DNA of 64,000 nt. It comes from Methanofastidiosum sp. (GTDB lineage: Archaea; Methanobacteriota_B; Thermococci; Methanofastidiosales; Methanofastidiosaceae). How positions within the stretch are numbered: position 1 is the first letter of the stretch; every line of letters starts with the position of its first letter. The position numbers were made by a program, and so were the translations under genes. The notes beneath the pieces were generated by a model. That model was not told the DNA's origin and searched no databases. It was given only the letters and a program-made list of their open reading frames with translations. Of this stretch, positions 1,085-44,104 are shown one piece after another. The stretch is from the NCBI GenBank assembly GCA_020854815.1, contig JAHKLW010000019.1, forward strand, positions 10,571 to 74,570, written 5' to 3'.

Positions 1085-1249
1085 CCACCCATCTCTTAGT
1101 TATTATAATACAGTTTCATATATTACTTTTACTATAGGCGTGCAGGAAGCCCAATACAAAATAAAAGTTTAATATTTTATTGATAAAATCAAGCAAAATT
1201 AGAAAAACTTAAAAATTAGAATATGTATAAATTATGTTGGAGGTTTCTT

Positions 1250-2512
1250 ATGTATAAATGTAATTTGGAAAGAATGCGTGATAAAATAAAAACATTTTCT
1301 GAATATGGTGATGCTGGACACGGGGGAATTACAAGATATTCACTTTCCCCAGAGGCAATTCAAGCAAGAAACGAATTTAAAAGAAGAATGGAGGCAATTG
1401 GTGCAACAATTGAAGTGGATGATATCGCCAACATGTACGCAACAATTCAAGGCACATCCCCAGACGCTAAGAGAATTGTAATGGCCTCTCATGTGGACTC
1501 TGTTAAAAATGGAGGTAACTATGATGGCATCTTGGGGGTTGTGTCTGCAATGGAAATTCTTGAAACTGTTAAAGAACAAAAGATTCCTCATAAACATCCG
1601 CTGACTGCTATGATCTGGACAAATGAGGAAGGTTCCCTATACCCACCTGCAATGATGGCATCCGGTATCGTATGTTATGATTACTTACCTGAGAAAATCC
1701 GTGGAAAGTTCAAATATGAAGATATGATGGCTTCAAAGAGTGTCTTAGATCCAACAAAAACTTTTAGAGAGGCTCTGGCCAAATCAGGATTTCAAGGAGA
1801 TAAGAAATATAGGCTCAATCCGGAAAACTATTTGTACATGTTTGAATTACATATTGAACAGGGACCAATTCTTGCGGATGCAGGTAATCATGTGGGTGTT
1901 GTTGACTGCGTACTGGGAATGTTTAATTATAGACTTAGATTTTATGGGCAGACGGTACACGCAGGCACCTTCCCAATGTCAAAGAGAAAAGATGCTTTCT
2001 TTGCTGCCGGACAGGCACTTTGTTATATCCATGCAGAGATCGATAAATTAAATATACCGGAGCTAGTTTATACGACTGGTGAGGTGACATGCCATCCATG
2101 TGTACATACCTGTGTTCCTGACTTCTTTGATTTTTGTATAGATGTAAGGCACGAAGATCCTAAGATACTTGAAAAAGTGCTTGCAATTGTCAAGAGTTGT
2201 GCAGACAGAGAGTGGGTAGGCTGCAAATGCGAAGTTGAAAAGGCATGGAACAGAGATACTGTTTACTTTGATAAGAAGCTCGTTGGATATGTAAAAGAGT
2301 CTGCAGAGAAAGCAGGCATCAAACATCAGTATATTCATTCCGGGGCAGGACATGATGCTCAGTTTGCATCTTATATGATCCCGACAACAATGATTTTTGT
2401 ACAGTCCAAAGACGGCTTATCCCATTGTGAACCAGAGTATTCCACAATTGAGCATTGCACGGAAGGTGCTACAGTTATGCTGAATGCAGTATTAAAAGCG
2501 GACAGAGACTAA
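1250..2512 (+). CDS. M20-family Zn-amidohydrolase (allantoate amidohydrolase / N-carbamoyl-L-amino-acid hydrolase family)
   Basis: 'GGITRYSLSPE', 'ASHVDSV.NGGNYDGILG', 'WTNEEGS' and 'HSGAGHDAQ' are typical of AmaB/AllC-type hydrolases. I place the start at the ATG at 1250, which sits 6 nt after a GGAGG at 1239-1243; the ORF track begins at 1223. Confidence 0.7.
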   Translation: MYKCNLERMRDKIKTFSEYGDAGHGGITRYSLSPEAIQARNEFKRRMEAIGATIEVDDIANMYATIQGTSPDAKRIVMASHVDSVKNGGNYDGILGVVSAMEILETVKEQKIPHKHPLTAMIWTNEEGSLYPPAMMASGIVCYDYLPEKIRGKFKYEDMMASKSVLDPTKTFREALAKSGFQGDKKYRLNPENYLYMFELHIEQGPILADAGNHVGVVDCVLGMFNYRLRFYGQTVHAGTFPMSKRKDAFFAAGQALCYIHAEIDKLNIPELVYTTGEVTCHPCVHTCVPDFFDFCIDVRHEDPKILEKVLAIVKSCADREWVGCKCEVEKAWNRDTVYFDKKLVGYVKESAEKAGIKHQYIHSGAGHDAQFASYMIPTTMIFVQSKDGLSHCEPEYSTIEHCTEGATVMLNAVLKADRD

Positions 2513-2713
2513 GAAGATTTAAGATTTCCTATGTATATCAATGAGGTCAGAGGTGTACGAGAAGCTAAACTTGAAATATTGATTAATAAGAACTATTGTA
2601 GTTGATGAAGCTTAAAAACAATTACTAGTATGATAAGAAGTCTAGCTTCTATATTCGTTGGAAAAATTTAAAAAGAAATCATAGTTTATAGGTTAAAAAT
2701 AGGAGGTGACTTT

Positions 2714-3718
2714 ATCGAAACTATTGTTGTTGCACTTGGTGGAAACGCCATAAAACAAGCTGACGAAAAAGGAACTCATGAAGAGCAGTTCAGAAACGTC
2801 GAAATTGCTTGTGAAGCTATTTTAAAATTAATAAAAGATGGATATGAAGTCGTGATTACACATGGTAATGGGCCTCAGTCAGGGAATCTGATGGTTCAGC
2901 AAGATGCTGCCTCAAACATTGTTCCACCGATGCCAATGGACGCTGTGGGTGCCATGACACAGGGACAAATAGGGTATATGATACAACAAACTCTTCAGAA
3001 TATGATGAAAGAGAAGAAGATGAATATACCAGTTGCCACTGTTGTCACCCAAGTGGTAGTATCAAAAGATGACCCTGATTTCCAAGACCCTTCGAAACCT
3101 GTAGGTAATTTTTTCACAGAGGTAGAAGCAAAAAAAATTGCTGCTGAAACAGGGTATGTGATTGATCCAAAACCCGGTCAAGATCATATTGACAAAAAGA
3201 TGAAAGGACACGTGATTAAGAAAGTAAAACCTACCGGAGACAAACCATACAGAAGAGTTGTTCCTTCTCCAGATCCAGTTAGACCTGCAGAAGCTGTTGC
3301 AATAAAAAAACTTGTAGACAGTAACGTTGTTGTTATTGCATCAGGCGGTGGTGGAGTGCCTGTCGTAGAGGACAAAAATGGTATGTTGATGGGAATTGAT
3401 GGGGTAATAGATAAAGATAAGGCCGGAGAAAGACTTGCAGAAGCGGTTGAAGCTGATATATTTTTAGTACTAACAGATGTAGAAGTGGCTTACTTAAACT
3501 TTGGAAAACCTGATCAAAAGCCTGTGAACAAGATGACAGTTGCCGAAGCTAAGAATTACTTAAAAGAAGGTCATTTTCTTGCAGGTAGTATGGGGCCAAA
3601 AGTTTTAGCTTGTATTAGATTCATAGAAGAAGCAAAGGGGAAAAAAGCTATTATTACATCTCTTAACAAGGCAGAAGATGCACTTATGGAAAAGACTGGG
3701 ACTACCATTGTTCCATAA
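2714..3718 (+). CDS. arcC: Carbamate kinase
   Basis: Very close to archaeal carbamate kinases: 'VVALGGNA', 'VVITHGNGPQ', 'VVPSPDP', 'ASGGGGVPV', 'GHFLAGSMGPKV'. The conserved N-terminus lies upstream of the first canonical start (GTG at 2852). The in-frame ATC at 2714 sits 6 nt after AGGAGGTGA at 2701-2709. Confidence 0.85.
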   Translation: METIVVALGGNAIKQADEKGTHEEQFRNVEIACEAILKLIKDGYEVVITHGNGPQSGNLMVQQDAASNIVPPMPMDAVGAMTQGQIGYMIQQTLQNMMKEKKMNIPVATVVTQVVVSKDDPDFQDPSKPVGNFFTEVEAKKIAAETGYVIDPKPGQDHIDKKMKGHVIKKVKPTGDKPYRRVVPSPDPVRPAEAVAIKKLVDSNVVVIASGGGGVPVVEDKNGMLMGIDGVIDKDKAGERLAEAVEADIFLVLTDVEVAYLNFGKPDQKPVNKMTVAEAKNYLKEGHFLAGSMGPKVLACIRFIEEAKGKKAIITSLNKAEDALMEKTGTTIVP

Positions 3719-3729
3719 GGAGGAGTTAT

Positions 3730-4080
3730 ATGGGAATGATAGTTAAATATGAGAAAGATACAACAATATTTACTCCAAATCTACATTTTGACTGTGATTC
3801 TCGTTGGTATTTTAAGAAGGGTGAGCCAACTGGAACTATGTCTGTCCTGAGGTCTGATTTTAAAAAAGGCGGCTGGGCAGACTGGCATGATCATGCAAGT
3901 GCAGACCAAGCATACTATGTCATAAAAGGAAAAGTAAGAGTTTGGATGGATAGTGAAGACAACTATGCGGACCTTGGTCCTGGTGATATGGTAATTTTCC
4001 CAATGGGGAGAAAGCATAAACTAAAGAATTTAACAGATGGAGAATTATCACTTGTAGCAATGAATGCGCCAGCTTTATAA
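3730..4080 (+). CDS. Cupin-domain protein
   Basis: 116 aa with 'WHDH...YYVIKG' and a 'GDMVIFPMG' cupin beta-barrel signature. Its stop is 8 nt downstream of the carbamate kinase stop, and it has its own GGAGG. Confidence 0.55.
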   Translation: MGMIVKYEKDTTIFTPNLHFDCDSRWYFKKGEPTGTMSVLRSDFKKGGWADWHDHASADQAYYVIKGKVRVWMDSEDNYADLGPGDMVIFPMGRKHKLKNLTDGELSLVAMNAPAL

Positions 4081-6342: not shown

Positions 6343-6417
6343 GGGACCGTGGGGTAGCTTGGCCCATCCTTTTGGCTTCGGGAGCCAGAAACCTGAGTTC
6401 AAATCTCGGCGGTCCCA
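6343..6417 (+). tRNA. tRNA-Pro (anticodon CGG)
   Basis: I hand-folded it. Acceptor stem GGGACCG/CGGTCCC, U8, D-loop with A14/G18G19/A21, anticodon stem TTGGC/GCCAG with loop TTCGGGA (U33, CGG, G37), T-arm CTGAG-TTCAAAT-CTCGG, discriminator A. CCA is not encoded, and there is no intron. An AT-rich TATA-like stretch lies about 25 nt upstream. Confidence 0.7.
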
Positions 6418-6497
6418 TTAAATATATAAATATAAATCTCTTTAATCTATAAGGAATCCTATTTTTTTAGATTAGAGATATCTTGAGGTGTATTTTA

Positions 6498-7640
6498 ATG
6501 GCCGATAAATTGAGAGATGAAATAATGGAAAAAATAAAAAGTGCTACAGGTAATAAACCAACTTTTTGTGTAATAGGTGCCGGAAATGGCGGTCTTGCAA
6601 TGGCAGGATATCTTGCATATTATGGTTTTTCAGTTAACATATGGACCCGAGACAAGGTGAAGATGGAGGCGTTGGCAGCTGCAGGTGGCATTGAAGTTGA
6701 GGGAAAAATAGAAGGGTTTGGAGAGCTAAATAAAACAGATGTAGATTTTCAAAAGTCAATTGAAGATGTAGATGTAATAATGGTCGTCATACCTGCAAAC
6801 GGTCACAGGGAGATTGGTGAAAAACTTGTAAAATATGTAAGGCCTGGGCAAACTATTGTTTTAAATCCAGGCAGAACAGGTGGAGCGTTAGAGCTTTACA
6901 ACATGTTTAGGAAAGAAGGAAAAATAAGAGAAGACCTTATAATCGCAGAAGCTCAGACTTTCTTATTTGTCGCTAGAAAACTCGGAGTCCATAAAGTTAG
7001 GATATTTGATATTAAAAGATCAGTTCCAGTTTCTGCAGTTAGGTCCTATAAGAATCCTGATCTTATTAAAATATTGAGAATGGCATTTCCACAGTTTACT
7101 CCTACATCAGACGTTCTTCACACAAGTTTGGGAAATGTTGCAGTTATGTTCCACCCTGGAGTAATGCTACTTAATACTGGCTGGGTAGAAAATCATGGTA
7201 ATTTTGAATATTATTTAGAAGGGATTTCACCAGGAGTTGCTAAATTATTGGAACATATAGATATGGAAAGAATAAAAATTGCAGAGGCAGTTGGCATAAG
7301 AGTTCCTTCTTTGAAAGATTGGCTCTATTTCTCTTACGGTTCAACTGGTTCTGATCTCTACGAATCAGTACAAACTACCCCTGCGTATAAAGGTGTAATG
7401 GCCCCTCCAACTATCCACCATAGATACATCTTAGAAGACGTTCCAATGAGTCTTGTTCCAATGTCATCACTTGGTAAAAAATTTGGTGTTGAAACAAAAT
7501 GTATTGATTCCCTTATTAATATAGCATGTTGCCAGCAAGAAAGGGATTTTTGGTCTGAAGGCAGAACTGTAGAGCATATGGGGATTAAGAACTTCGACTT
7601 AAAAACAATAAAGAGGCTAATCGCAGGTGAGATAGTATGA
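6498..7640 (+). CDS. NAD(P)-dependent dehydrogenase of the opine (octopine/nopaline) dehydrogenase family
   Basis: N-terminal Rossmann motif 'FCVIGAGNGGLAMAGYLA', and the overall length and pattern resemble the Octopine_DH / ketopantoate-reductase-like fold. The ATG at 6498 follows GAGGTG at 6485-6490. Confidence 0.55.
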   Translation: MADKLRDEIMEKIKSATGNKPTFCVIGAGNGGLAMAGYLAYYGFSVNIWTRDKVKMEALAAAGGIEVEGKIEGFGELNKTDVDFQKSIEDVDVIMVVIPANGHREIGEKLVKYVRPGQTIVLNPGRTGGALELYNMFRKEGKIREDLIIAEAQTFLFVARKLGVHKVRIFDIKRSVPVSAVRSYKNPDLIKILRMAFPQFTPTSDVLHTSLGNVAVMFHPGVMLLNTGWVENHGNFEYYLEGISPGVAKLLEHIDMERIKIAEAVGIRVPSLKDWLYFSYGSTGSDLYESVQTTPAYKGVMAPPTIHHRYILEDVPMSLVPMSSLGKKFGVETKCIDSLINIACCQQERDFWSEGRTVEHMGIKNFDLKTIKRLIAGEIV

Positions 7641-9253
7641 GGGCAGTTCTTGCAACAATAGGGAATTGTATTCACGTTCAAGGAATAAAAAACTTTGAAA
7701 ATTTGTTGATTAGAAATAATATTGATACAGAATTTATTGGAGTATGTGTTGATACAGACAAACTGATAAAAATCATTTTAGAAAAAAATCCCGATATTAT
7801 AGGTCTAAGTTACAGGCTTGAACCCGAAACTGCTAAAATATTATTCAAAAAGTTGAAGAATTCTATTGAAGATAATAAAATTAAATCTAAGTTTTTCTTT
7901 GGAGGAACTCCTGCTGTGTGTGAAATTGCTGAAGAATCTGGACTATTTTCAGGGGTTTTTAGAGGAATAGAAACTGAAGAACAGATACTTGATAAAGTCC
8001 TTGGGAGAGAGGGCGAGTTTAATTCAGTAGAGTATTCTCAAGATCTCTATGAAAGAATTCAAAAATCTTATCCCTTTCCTTTGATAAGACATCATTTTGG
8101 GTTACCTTCTCTTGAAAAAACAATTGAAGGTGTTAAAGAAATTGCAAATAGTAAAACTCTTGATATCATATCCATAGGGCCAGATCAAATAGCACAAGAA
8201 TGTTTTTTTAATCAAGGAAATATTTGTAAAGAGTTCGAAGGTGGTGGTGGGGTACCCCTTCGAAAAAAGGAAGACTTAGGTTCTATATATGAGTCATCAA
8301 GAGTGGGTAACTATCCTCTTTTGAGATGCTATGCTGGCACAAATGATTTGATAAAATGGGGCGATATGTTAAAAGAAACAATTAATAACGCTTGGGGAGC
8401 AATACCCCTGTTCTGGTATTCAGAACTGGATGGGAGGTCAAAAAGGGATTTAGTTAGTGCAATTACTGAAAACCAAAAAACTATAAAATGGCATGCAGAG
8501 AACAATGTTCCAGTTGAGATTAATGATTCACACCAATGGGCCCTTAGAAAAACTACTGACCCCATTGAAGTTGCCTCTGCTTATATCGCAACATATAATG
8601 CTAGAGAACTAGGAGTTAAGTACTACATCCAACAGTTTATGATGAATGTGCCCCCAGAAATTTCTCCTGAGATGGATATTGCAAAAATGTTAGCAAAACT
8701 AGAGATTATATCCGAATTATCAAATGAAGATTTTACAATTCTAAAAATGATAAGAACAGGTCTTGCCTCTCTTTCTGTCGATGAAAACATAGCAAAAGGA
8801 GAACTTGCTTCGTCAATTACAATTGGTATGTATCTAAAACCACATATTGTTCATGTAGTGGGATATTCAGAAGCATATAACGTAGCAACGCCATACGTCA
8901 TCATTGAAAGCTCAAAAATTGCAAGAGGCGTAATAAAAAATTGTCTTAAAGGATTACCTAGCATAGAAGATAACAAGAGGATACTAAAAAGAAAAGAAGA
9001 GATAATCGAGGACACTCGATTGATTATTGAAACTTTGAAATTACTTGGCGAAAGTTCAGATCCTTTAAAAGATCCCTATTCTCTCTATAAAGCTGTTAAA
9101 GTTGGCCTTATGGATGCAGAAAATTTGAAGGGATTTGATCCCGCAAAGGGGACAATTAAAACAGCCGTGATAGATGGAATGGTTCGATGTATTGATGAAA
9201 ATAATGGAGAAGTACTATCTGAGAAGGAGAGAATTAAGAGATTACGTATATAA
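7637..9253 (+). CDS. Uncharacterised protein with N-terminal cobalamin (B12)-binding-like domain
   Basis: Residues 3-110 follow the B12-binding Rossmann pattern: 'AVLATIGNCIHVQG' (the DxHxxG position reads CxHxxG), 'DIIGLSYRL', 'FFFGGTP'. The C-terminal domain of about 400 aa is unassigned. The start overlaps the upstream gene (ATGA). Confidence 0.45.
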   Translation: MRAVLATIGNCIHVQGIKNFENLLIRNNIDTEFIGVCVDTDKLIKIILEKNPDIIGLSYRLEPETAKILFKKLKNSIEDNKIKSKFFFGGTPAVCEIAEESGLFSGVFRGIETEEQILDKVLGREGEFNSVEYSQDLYERIQKSYPFPLIRHHFGLPSLEKTIEGVKEIANSKTLDIISIGPDQIAQECFFNQGNICKEFEGGGGVPLRKKEDLGSIYESSRVGNYPLLRCYAGTNDLIKWGDMLKETINNAWGAIPLFWYSELDGRSKRDLVSAITENQKTIKWHAENNVPVEINDSHQWALRKTTDPIEVASAYIATYNARELGVKYYIQQFMMNVPPEISPEMDIAKMLAKLEIISELSNEDFTILKMIRTGLASLSVDENIAKGELASSITIGMYLKPHIVHVVGYSEAYNVATPYVIIESSKIARGVIKNCLKGLPSIEDNKRILKRKEEIIEDTRLIIETLKLLGESSDPLKDPYSLYKAVKVGLMDAENLKGFDPAKGTIKTAVIDGMVRCIDENNGEVLSEKERIKRLRI

Positions 9254-9267
9254 TAGTTATTAACTAA
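9254..9267. repeat. TAGTTATTAAC motif copy (candidate partition site)
   Basis: The same 10-11-mer recurs at 10436-10446 on the + strand and at 10461-10470 on the - strand, flanking the parA-RHH operon. Confidence 0.35.
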
Positions 9268-9312
9268 TATATATTAAATAATATCTATTATATAATAAAT
9301 ATTAATTAATAT

Positions 9313-9654
9313 TTATTTTAAAAGTGCAGGATCTCTTTTATCGATATATTCTTTTATTGCTTCTTCGACAGTTGAACTTCTTTCCCCAGTATTTAGTGCT
9401 ACTTTTATGGATCTTGGAATGCCCAACTTATCTTTTATTAACGTGTCTAGAGCATTTACAAGTTCTTCGTCAAGTGAAAAACTTTTAATTATCTTTTTCT
9501 TTTTATATAGAGACTTTTCTTCTTCTTTATGTGTAAAGCGTTGGGTCATTATTTCCTTTTTTTCCTTCTCGTGATCAATTTCCTCTTTAGTTAGGATAAC
9601 TCTTCTTTGTATTTCTTTCTCCAAATCATTCTTTAACCCGTCAGTTAAGGCCAT
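9313..9654 (-). CDS. Ribbon-helix-helix DNA-binding protein (ParG-like partner)
   Basis: C-terminal 'SFSLDEELVNALDTLIK' is a typical RHH beta-strand and helix. It lies immediately downstream of parA, with a TGATG start/stop overlap. The start is ambiguous between 9681, 9657 and 9654. Confidence 0.55.
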   Translation of the reverse strand: MALTDGLKNDLEKEIQRRVILTKEEIDHEKEKKEIMTQRFTHKEEEKSLYKKKKIIKSFSLDEELVNALDTLIKDKLGIPRSIKVALNTGERSSTVEEAIKEYIDKRDPALLK

Positions 9655-41922: not shown

Positions 41923-44104
41923 TCATGTTCCTACTCTCTTCTTTTTAATATCGAATAATTTTTTAGTATCTTTAAAAAATCTTTCTTGAATTACTAAAAA
42001 AGAGGGTAAAAACAACAGAGTTATCCCCGCGCAGCTGAATACACCAACAAAGAGAAGTTTACCCATAACATCAAGGAAATTAAGAGTTGCAGCTAGAATT
42101 GCCATAAATCCAAATCCGGATACAAAAGAAGAGAGAATAACTGGCTCAAATACACCTCTAACAGTATTTACTATCCTTTCAACCATAATGGGGCTTTTCT
42201 CTAATCTAAATCTGTTTATTGTTTGAATGGCAAAATCAATTCCAATCCCCGCCATAATTGACATAATTCCAACAAGTCCTGAGTCTATAGTTGTACCCAT
42301 AAATCCTGCTATACCCATCATCCAGATAACACCTACTCCTACGGATAGTAGAGGGATAATTCCATATCGAACTGACATAAAAGTCAACATTACACATGCT
42401 AAGATCCCAATTAATCCCAAAATTGAAAGTTTTGACATCTCTGGCATAATAATGTCTGTTAATTCTCTAATCATTGCCATAGTGCCACCAGGCTGAACTG
42501 AAAGGGGGGTCAAACTTAATACTTTTTTAACATCATCATAAACTTGAAGCTGATCAGCACCCTTAGAAACATCTAATCTTATGATGAGATATCCTAAACT
42601 ATCAGACACTTCAAGTCTTCTCTTTAAATCTTCCTTTGGTAGATATATGTCTTTAATATCTAAGTTGAATGAAGAGCCTTCAATACCATAAACATTAATC
42701 AGCTGATTATTTAGTAGATATACCTCTTTTAGTACATTTGAAGAGAGCACATTTTCTGATTTTATTAGAACTAACATTGAGTCATATCTCTGAAATTTAT
42801 CCTTTAAGATATTAAATACCTTTATCACTTCAGAATTTTCTGGCAATGAACTCTCTTCAGTTTCTTCTATGAATTTAAGATAATTTATGCCTGATGCGAG
42901 TAATAGTGTTATAAAAATACCGGCCACAAGAAAGGATTTTGGTCTTTTAGCCTGTAGCTCAGTAAATCTGACAATATTTTTATCTAATTTTTTATTTCTT
43001 ATTTCAATTCCACTAACACTCCATTCCTTCAAAGGCATTAGACATGGCAAAAAGAAAAAAGCCCCTATCAAGCAGTTTATTATGCCTAGCGATAGCGTCT
43101 GACCAAGATGCACAACTGAGAGCATACTAGAAAAAGTAAGGGCCGCAAAACCTGCAATAGTAGTGGTACTTGATCCAATAGTACCTTTACCAACACCCGC
43201 AACCATTGCGACTACTCTTGTCTCATTCGTTGCTCCTTTTTTTGCTTCCTCTCTGTACCTTGACATCATAAATATTCCATACTCAGTTCCAAGACCAATA
43301 ATAATGGCCCCAAAAGTCCCCGTGGCCATACTTATAGGTACGTCCATAAGGGCTAGTTGTCCTGTAGTCCAGATCATTCCAAGAAGAGGAGGTGCTATAA
43401 CTAAAAATGATTTTAAATGAAAAATCAAAGTCAACAGTATAAGTATGATTAACAATGCAAAGGCAACAGTTTTTATTATATCCTCTTATAGAATTTCTAG
43501 CAAAGTTTTAATCAGAATTGGGGATCCAGTAACATTATAATTTAACCCATAAAGATTTTCTTTTTCTACTTCTTCCTCGACTATTTTAATTATTGAATTA
43601 ATGCTTGTTTGATCATAAACAAAGCTAGTAGTCCTGACCAATACAATTGCTGCTGAATAGTCACTTGAGAGTAATTGGGGAATAGTATCTGCAAAATTTT
43701 TCAAATATGTATCATTATCAGGAATTTCTCCAAAAATAGAATAATAAACTGTCCCGGGGCCTAAAGAGTCCAGAATTTCCGGACGAGATTCTGACCTCTG
43801 CTCTAGCCTATATATACTTTCTAATGATTTTTTGTTTCTTATATCTGAAACTTCATTAAGATCAGTTTCTAAAAGGATAATTATGGCCTCTTCTGCGCCA
43901 AACTCATTTGTGATTAGCTCTTGAGTCTTTACTACATCAAACTCTTGAAGGTATTTCTTTCATTAAATCAGATTCAAAACTAAGATTTAGAGACTGGGCA
44001 GCGAAAAATACAGTTAGTATTAACATTACAATTACGATAATTTTAGAATATCTGTATTCCAATATACCTAATTTTCCCAGAGCAGTTTTTCTTAAATCAT
44101 ACAC
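41923..44104 (-). pseudogene. MMPL/RND-superfamily exporter gene disrupted by frameshift and in-frame TAA
   Basis: Three collinear pieces: an N-terminal TM1 piece (GTG at 44104), a periplasmic domain (through 43489), and the TM2-12 part (41923-43485). They are joined by a +1 frame change near 43940-43975 and an in-frame TAA at 43486-43488. Flanking residues 'LLEIL*EDIIKTVAF' continue in frame. Confidence 0.6.

Follow-up and report, generated by a model that had tools for sequence, protein, structure and literature searches.

A near-cognate AUC or AUA codon as the probable start of the carbamate kinase gene of Methanofastidiosum

The stretch of DNA analysed here (the window: 64,000 nucleotides (nt) of Methanofastidiosum sp., with coordinates counted from its first letter) carries a gene for carbamate kinase (CK) whose conserved N-terminus is encoded upstream of every canonical in-frame start codon. 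We consider it likely that translation of this gene starts at a near-cognate AUC codon, or at AUA in a sister clade, to which the ribosome is guided by a Shine-Dalgarno (SD) sequence. For this gene, an earlier note on this DNA had proposed that either AUC serves as a rare start or the sequence contains a point change, be it real or a sequencing error. Beyond this, the non-canonical state is shared by the whole genus, takes the form of ATC or ATA, and goes back to an ancestral ATG.

Identity and anatomy of the carbamate kinase gene

The CK frame is open from 2672 to its stop at 3716-3718, and in-frame ATG, GTG and TTG are absent across 2672-2851. The features of the gene are as follows.

2669..2671, + strand: TAA in the CK frame, marking its upstream limit, read from the sequence
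2701..2709, + strand: SD sequence AGGAGGTGA, whose 9 nt all agree with the complement of the archaeal 16S 3' end
2714..2716, + strand: ATC, the putative near-cognate CK start codon, aligned with the M of METIVVALGGNA in outgroups
2714..3718, + strand: full-length CK coding sequence, 334 codons plus the TAA stop, supported by TIGR00746, by the structure 1E19 and by the ratio of nonsynonymous to synonymous substitution (dN/dS)
2732..2749, + strand: codons 7-12 (ALGGNA), which form the N-terminal glycine-rich loop and pair with VIALGGNA of 1E19 and 3KZF in the alignment
2852..2854, + strand: GTG, the first canonical in-frame codon (codon 47), which leads to a product of 288 amino acids (aa) in open reading frame (ORF) and gene calls

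Translation beginning at the ATC reads IETIVVALGGNAIKQ, while the mechanical ORF list shows CK only as the 288-aa ORF. The positions that the earlier note had given for the opening of the frame, the ATC and the first canonical GTG were confirmed in the sequence. Its argument that a start at GTG 2852 would delete the glycine-rich loop also holds, since ALGGNA lies upstream of codon 47.

Against the NCBIfam equivalog model for arcC (TIGR00746) the CK translation scored 392 bits, above the cut-off of 358.25, with CK residues 3-333 aligned to model positions 2-308, and it also matched the Pfam family AA_kinase (PF00696, E = 2.8e-25). The best match among solved structures was the enzyme of Pyrococcus furiosus (1E19, E = 1.4e-93), of which residue 5 (VVIALGGNA) pairs with CK residue 4. 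The family profile and the 1E19 alignment therefore place the N-terminus of the family at the ATC codon to within one residue. The motifs ALGGNA, THGNGPQ, ASGGGGVP, IDKD and GSMGPK are all kept in the alignment to 1E19 and 3KZF, and the ALGGNA loop is invariant across all orthologues. These matches are consistent with a gene that encodes a complete carbamate kinase, predicted to interconvert carbamoyl phosphate + ADP and carbamate + ATP. The neighbourhood fits this activity as well, as an OTCase-family or an allantoate-amidohydrolase-like gene lies upstream, depending on the lineage.

With 334 aa the protein is longer than typical CKs (about 310-316 aa). Approximately 16 extra residues (QDHIDKKMKGHVIKKV; CK residues 156-171, window 3179-3226) were left unaligned to 1E19 by HMMER, and this 16-residue stretch is also present in near relatives of the Methanofastidiosum CK.

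The start region across Methanofastidiosum and its outgroups

A scan of one genome per GTDB species assigned the window to Methanofastidiosum of the class Methanofastidiosia (WSA2), which are uncultured methanogens. By exact-protein look-ups and from a genome collection and a metagenome collection we obtained 30 related loci with the CK start region, which collapse to 16 distinct complete coding sequences and one partial sequence and include 9 GTDB species representatives.

The codon at the ATC position is ATC or ATA in 16/16 distinct complete coding sequences and in all 30 loci. Neither ATG, GTG, TTG nor ATT was found at this position in any of the 30 related loci, no orthologue of the genus lacks the glycine-rich loop, and the downstream GTG is not conserved. 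All related loci have GGTGAY followed by 3 nt (TTT, TTC or TCC) directly ahead of the ATC or ATA; this core and its spacing are constant in the 30 loci, while the remaining upstream region varies by lineage. In 13 related loci, the frame was inspected from the upstream stop to the conserved N-terminus and contained no canonical start. An identical CK copy on a separate contig (L027) agrees with the window in the ATC and in 45 nt of upstream context.

Outside the genus the position is occupied by ATG. This applies to L016, from a Methanofastidiosia archaeon (82% aa identity), and to L047 (which encodes P0003), both encoding METIVVALGGNA, and also to L044 (79% aa identity), where the ATG stands in the identical context, AGGTGATTTT-ATG. 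The ATG of the outgroups dates the change from ATG to ATH (H standing for A, C or T) before or at the base of the genus. The real ATG-to-ATC change considered in the earlier note thus did occur in the form of ATG to ATH, but it is an old event that preceded the split of the genus, as L016, L047 and L044 keep ATG.

In a neighbour-joining tree built from the codon alignment with L016 as the root, one clade has ATA throughout (clade B) and one has mostly ATC (clade A), and L028, which has ATA, is nested inside the ATC clade. The partial sequence L041 has ATA within the upstream context of clade A. From this pattern it follows that the third base has switched at least two times without a return to G.

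ATC is an uncommon isoleucine codon in this setting, with a share of 15.6% of the Ile codons in the window and of 14% of the invariant-Ile codons of CK in clade A. At the start column, it is found in 10/11 clade A sequences, whereas 0/22 invariant Ile columns have ATC in at least 10/11. ATT is the commonest Ile codon of CK, yet it never occurs at the start column. These codon counts, which reflect few independent events, are suggestive of a constraint on the third base.

The 5' limit of the coding region can be narrowed down by two observations. In clade B an in-frame stop (TAA) lies just 4 codons ahead of the ATA, leaving no room for an upstream canonical start. Furthermore, the codon directly before ATH is TTT, TTC or TCC (Phe, Phe or Ser), which is nonsynonymous variation. 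The varying codon and the clade B stop together indicate that coding does not reach further in the 5' direction.

A 298-aa protein of a sister lineage (P0012) was considered as a second, independent loss of the start; this was ruled out, as the P0012 locus starts with a normal ATG. In this locus (L048, 1198-1275) the AGGTGATTTT-ATG start is followed by an in-frame TAG at the Glu24 of the relatives, due to a nonsense mutation or a sequencing error, and it is this TAG that shortens the gene call. The CK of P0020 is cut by the contig end.

Purifying selection upstream of the first canonical codon

We determined dN/dS by the method of Nei and Gojobori for codons 2-46 and for the rest of CK. In codons 2-46, dN/dS was 0.04-0.09 for pairs with nonsynonymous changes, which are missing from the two closest pairs; for the remainder of CK it was 0.02-0.065. 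These estimates have to be read with the caveat that synonymous sites are near saturation, with dS between lineages ranging from about 0.16 to 1.4 or being saturated. The purifying selection on codons 2-46, which matches that on the remaining codons in strength, means that the region before the first canonical codon is translated. Moreover, the CK frame is intact in 16/16 distinct sequences, with 332-335 codons. Together with the genus-wide ATC or ATA and the conserved SD, this selection supports the rare AUC start put forward in the earlier note, where initiation would take place at the ATH codon itself.

Shine-Dalgarno sequence and comparison with other genes of the window

The 9-nt SD sequence occurs as a single copy in the 64 kb on both strands (0.35 expected). 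No other of the 56 gene starts scored in the window matches the anti-SD complement AGGAGGTGATCC over such a length, the runner-up reaching 7 nt. The spacer to the ATC comprises 4 nt when counted from the end of AGGAGGTGA and 7 nt when counted from the GGAGG core. The perfect SD at good spacing described in the earlier note is therefore real, with a 9-nt match, while its spacer length of 6 nt has to be corrected. At genuine starts of the window the start codon lies 3-6 nt past the A of GGTGA, and the 4 nt of CK fall within this range. The SDs of the two nearest ATG outgroups, GTGATC and GTGAT, are weaker than that of the window.

The SD of CK is alone in the window in lying outside other genes with a long ORF behind it and with a canonical start absent at working distance. 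The open stretch before the first canonical codon comprises 60 codons in CK, but at most 32 in the other ORFs away from the window edge, and none of the window ORFs with shorter pre-start stretches has an SD without a canonical start before it. Since CK is the sole outlier in both scans, the anomaly is gene-specific as far as the 64 kb show. A genome-wide relaxed use of start codons was ruled out for these 64 kb, because the SD-motif and open-stretch scans single out CK only.

Existing annotation

NCBI proteins of 334 or 335 aa with M as the first residue, MEN6378932.1, HII95956.1, MDY1591498.1, HNV94554.1 and HOM95758.1 among them, are, the first residue aside, identical to translations from ATC (L009, L014, L025) and from ATA (L012, L013, L001). 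NCBI annotation thus already accepts ATC and ATA as starts of this gene. In the calls of JGI/IMG, ENA and Logan and in the original calls of Ca. Methanofastidiosum methylothiophilum (e.g. KYC54471.1), CK is shortened to 327, 298, 289, 288 or 275 aa. This holds for every non-NCBI call retrieved for the clade, on hundreds of contigs. The glycine loop is wholly lost in all shortened calls but the 327-aa one, which begins inside the loop (LGGNA...). Metabolic reconstructions of Methanofastidiosia could treat CK as defective on the basis of such calls. A literature search retrieved no paper on this start codon and none that links Methanofastidiosa with carbamate kinase.

Gene neighbourhood

Two genes flank CK in the window.

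1223..2512, + strand: M20 gene similar to allantoate amidohydrolase / N-carbamoyl-amino-acid hydrolase (NF006771, 440 bits)
3730..4080, + strand: cupin gene downstream of CK, with its own AGGAGG SD and ATG

While the block CK-(cupin)-pyrG-hxlB is conserved throughout the relatives, the gene upstream of CK differs. It encodes the M20 enzyme in the window, an OTCase-family protein in L007 and L008 (1731-2842), and an aldehyde:ferredoxin oxidoreductase in clade B (L001, 912-2735); L014 and L038 have the same upstream sequence as the window. The M20 gene ends 201 nt before the ATC, a gap that does not permit translational coupling between the two. The relatives do not rely on coupling either, since their upstream genes vary by lineage and are separated from CK by about 50 to 250 nt. 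The exchange of upstream genes suggests that CK may serve different carbamoyl-phosphate-producing pathways in different species.

Several further observations were made in these loci. In L007 (4433-5909), pyrG, coding for CTP synthase, is called in two pieces of 139 aa and 329 aa, probably as a result of a frameshift or a sequencing error; it is a single 522-aa gene in the window and in the other loci. The Octopine_DH-family gene of the window (6483-6500) is listed from TTG 6483, and GAGGTG is located 7 nt upstream of ATG 6498. A start at this ATG is more probable and would give 380 aa (381 aa in the L001 homologue). On the minus strand at 41923-44104, a membrane-transporter-like gene seems to be broken: a 510-aa ORF is accompanied upstream by ORFs of 72 aa and 55 aa, which sit in a 1.5-kb stretch without a long ORF, and a pseudogene, a frameshift or an assembly problem is possible. 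An A/T-only tandem repeat with periods of 14, 21 and 28 and about 2-5 copies (9247-9317) lies in the gap between convergent genes ending at 9253 and 9313. Finally, an unusual tRNA near CK was ruled out, since the one tRNA of the window is tRNA-Pro(CGG). This tRNA gene (6343-6417) is the only RNA gene found in the 64 kb by ARAGORN and Rfam. A regulatory RNA at the CK start was rejected as well, as the Rfam search of the window returned nothing there.

Discussion

The following sequence of events would account for the start region of CK. The 30S subunit would be placed by strong SD pairing (AGGAGGUGA in the window, AGGUGAU in relatives) that ends 4 nt before the codon. The initiator Met-tRNA (anticodon CAU) would then pair with the first two bases, the mismatch at the third position being tolerated. 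The resulting N-terminus would read Met-Glu-Thr-Ile-Val-Val-Ala-Leu-Gly-Gly-Asn-Ala, peptides such as (M)ETIVVALGGNAIK would be expected from residues 1-46, and the N-terminal tryptic peptide predicted for Met initiation at AUH is METIVVALGGNAIK, possibly acetylated. In evolutionary terms, an ancestral ATG in the same context would have turned into ATH before Methanofastidiosum diversified and would have been retained since. CK translation would thereby be held well below the level that the strong SD would otherwise give, and the weak AUH start probably lowers the output of CK.

Some points weigh against this interpretation. Initiation, the N-terminal residue and the output are deduced from sequence data, and the organisms are uncultured. 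Reviews give only AUG, GUG and UUG as archaeal start codons (PMC7531240). The factor aIF1 has been reported to discriminate against non-canonical starts (PMC6237735), which would allow for a very low efficiency of AUH. Since the strong SD accompanies ATG in L044, it is ancestral and thus not readable as compensation for a weak codon; a strengthening of the SD to offset the weak codon was dropped as an explanation for this reason. Finally, the position of the transcription start is not fixed by the A+T-rich sequence.

The last point bears on the alternative that fares best among those considered here, although we regard it as improbable: a non-standard initiation at ATH, either on a leaderless mRNA that begins at or near ATH, or with Ile as the first residue via a non-initiator tRNA. 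The latter version predicts the N-terminal peptide IETIVVALGGNAIK. In the window and in clade A, ATH is indeed preceded at approximately 22-31 nt by TATA-like A/T runs, and the first amino acid of CK is not identified by the sequence. However, with about 80% A+T in the intergenic region such runs should arise by chance, and a leader is implied by the conserved SD, which sits at working distance. The 5' end of leaderless archaeal mRNAs has been described as carrying AUG, GUG or UUG (PMC7531240), and an AUC start in E. coli gave an N-terminal Met (bioRxiv 10.1101/063800).

There is very little probability that the real start lies downstream, at GTG 2852, at the TTG that forms codon 8 in some relatives, or at the conserved Met60, with the upstream part untranslated. 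This is what the non-NCBI gene calls imply by choosing downstream codons, and the ATG at codon 60 is conserved. In contrast, codons 2-46 evolve with the low dN/dS given above and with many synonymous changes. The other candidate codons are canonical in some lineages only: among the relatives codon 8 is CTT, TTG or TTA, codon 37 is TTA, TTG or TTT, and codon 47 is GTG, GTT or GTA (GTT, GTA and GTA in L009, L010 and L007, respectively). None of the downstream candidates has an SD, Met60 sits within the conserved motif GNLMVQQ, and the products of downstream starts would miss the ALGGNA loop seen in solved CK structures.

A recoding event is about as doubtful as a downstream start. Translation would in this case begin out of frame, at the SD-internal GTG or at a different upstream codon, and enter the CK frame by a frameshift or by termination and reinitiation. 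The GTG at 2706-2708, being part of GGTGA, is the one canonical triplet upstream that is conserved, and the last codon of the short clade B frame GTG-ATT-TCA-TAG overlaps the ATA. However, the SD-internal GTG has no SD of its own, and its frame comprises 15 codons in clade A versus 3 in clade B, so that neither the layout nor a slippery site is conserved. Folds of the start region were no more stable than those of shuffled sequences (z = -0.3 to -1.0).

The possibility that the true codon is ATG has next to no weight, whether ATC is put down to an error in sequencing or assembly or to a mutation that arose recently in one strain. ATC differs from ATG by one base, and close outgroups have ATG, but the same non-canonical codon in 30 loci from many independent metagenomes and metagenome-assembled genomes, with near-saturated synonymous divergence among the 16 distinct coding sequences and the identical CK with ATC on the separate contig L027, refutes the sequencing error that the earlier note had considered. 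A decaying pseudogene that has lost its start codon is equally negligible: loss of ATG is a common first step of gene decay, but the frames are intact, dN/dS is 0.02-0.09 over long divergence, the SD is conserved and the protein scores above the arcC equivalog cut-off.

Initiation at a near-cognate AUC or AUA therefore remains the interpretation that we favour, and it raises the question of why the weak codon persists. The lack of reversion to ATG, the absence of ATT and the persistence of the rare ATC are hints of a selected weak start. We tentatively consider, as one possibility that we would not rank first, that AUC and AUA are kept by selection because they set or conditionally gate CK output, e.g. 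via the level of aIF1. The weak start may be selected or merely tolerated. If it is selected, CK would provide the first documented case in Archaea of a natural AUH start maintained by evolution, and the CK start would exemplify the tuning of expression through the start codon. Dependence on AUC or AUA throughout the diversification of the genus would also make this gene a natural substrate for the study of start-codon fidelity mediated by aIF1 and aIF2. The case further shows that such genes can be found by looking for a conserved N-terminus upstream of the first canonical codon in combination with an adjacent strong SD.

The CK start is an archaeal case of a known feature, namely near-cognate AUH starts, rather than a new kind of system. 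In E. coli, AUA, AUC and AUU initiate at approximately 1-2% of the AUG level, N-terminal Met has been confirmed for AUC, and infC (coding for IF3) and pcnB are the only confirmed natural AUU cases (bioRxiv 10.1101/063800). CK resembles these two genes in its conserved AUH codon with a third-position mismatch to CAU, in the SD that precedes it, in the absence of a canonical alternative and, presumably, in its reduced translation. It differs from them in being archaeal, with start selection via aIF1, aIF1A and aIF2, in using AUC or AUA but never AUU, and in encoding a metabolic enzyme without an evident autoregulatory link to initiation fidelity. Mutations from ATG to ATA or ATT lower the translation of rsbW in Listeria monocytogenes (PMC13068326). 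There, the same base position is altered, the state of the start codon likewise follows clades, and translation continues at a lower level, as it may do in CK. In contrast to CK, the rsbW variants are recent, within-species and reporter-tested, while the CK state is fixed genus-wide over saturating synonymous divergence; in the comparison with rsbW as in that with infC and pcnB, what is known of CK comes from its nucleotide sequence.

Within the Archaea, ribosome profiling of Haloferax volcanii yielded approximately 30% near-cognate codons among putative alternative start sites, which the authors set aside to limit false positives (PMC7261190). As proposed here for CK, near-cognates of AUG appear to be used for initiation by archaeal ribosomes at those sites; but whereas the sites of H. 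volcanii are alternative or extra ones, the conserved enzyme CK has no other start available than its near-cognate codon. With regard to the protein, homology to the solved CKs of P. furiosus (1E19), Giardia (3KZF) and E. faecalis (1B7B) extends over the full length (E = 1e-93 to 1e-70), and the N-terminal VxALGGNA loop and the motifs GNGPQ, SGGGG and GSMGPK are common to all of them. The Methanofastidiosum CK is set apart from these enzymes by its extra residues at 156-171, unaligned to 1E19, and by a gene that has no canonical start codon.

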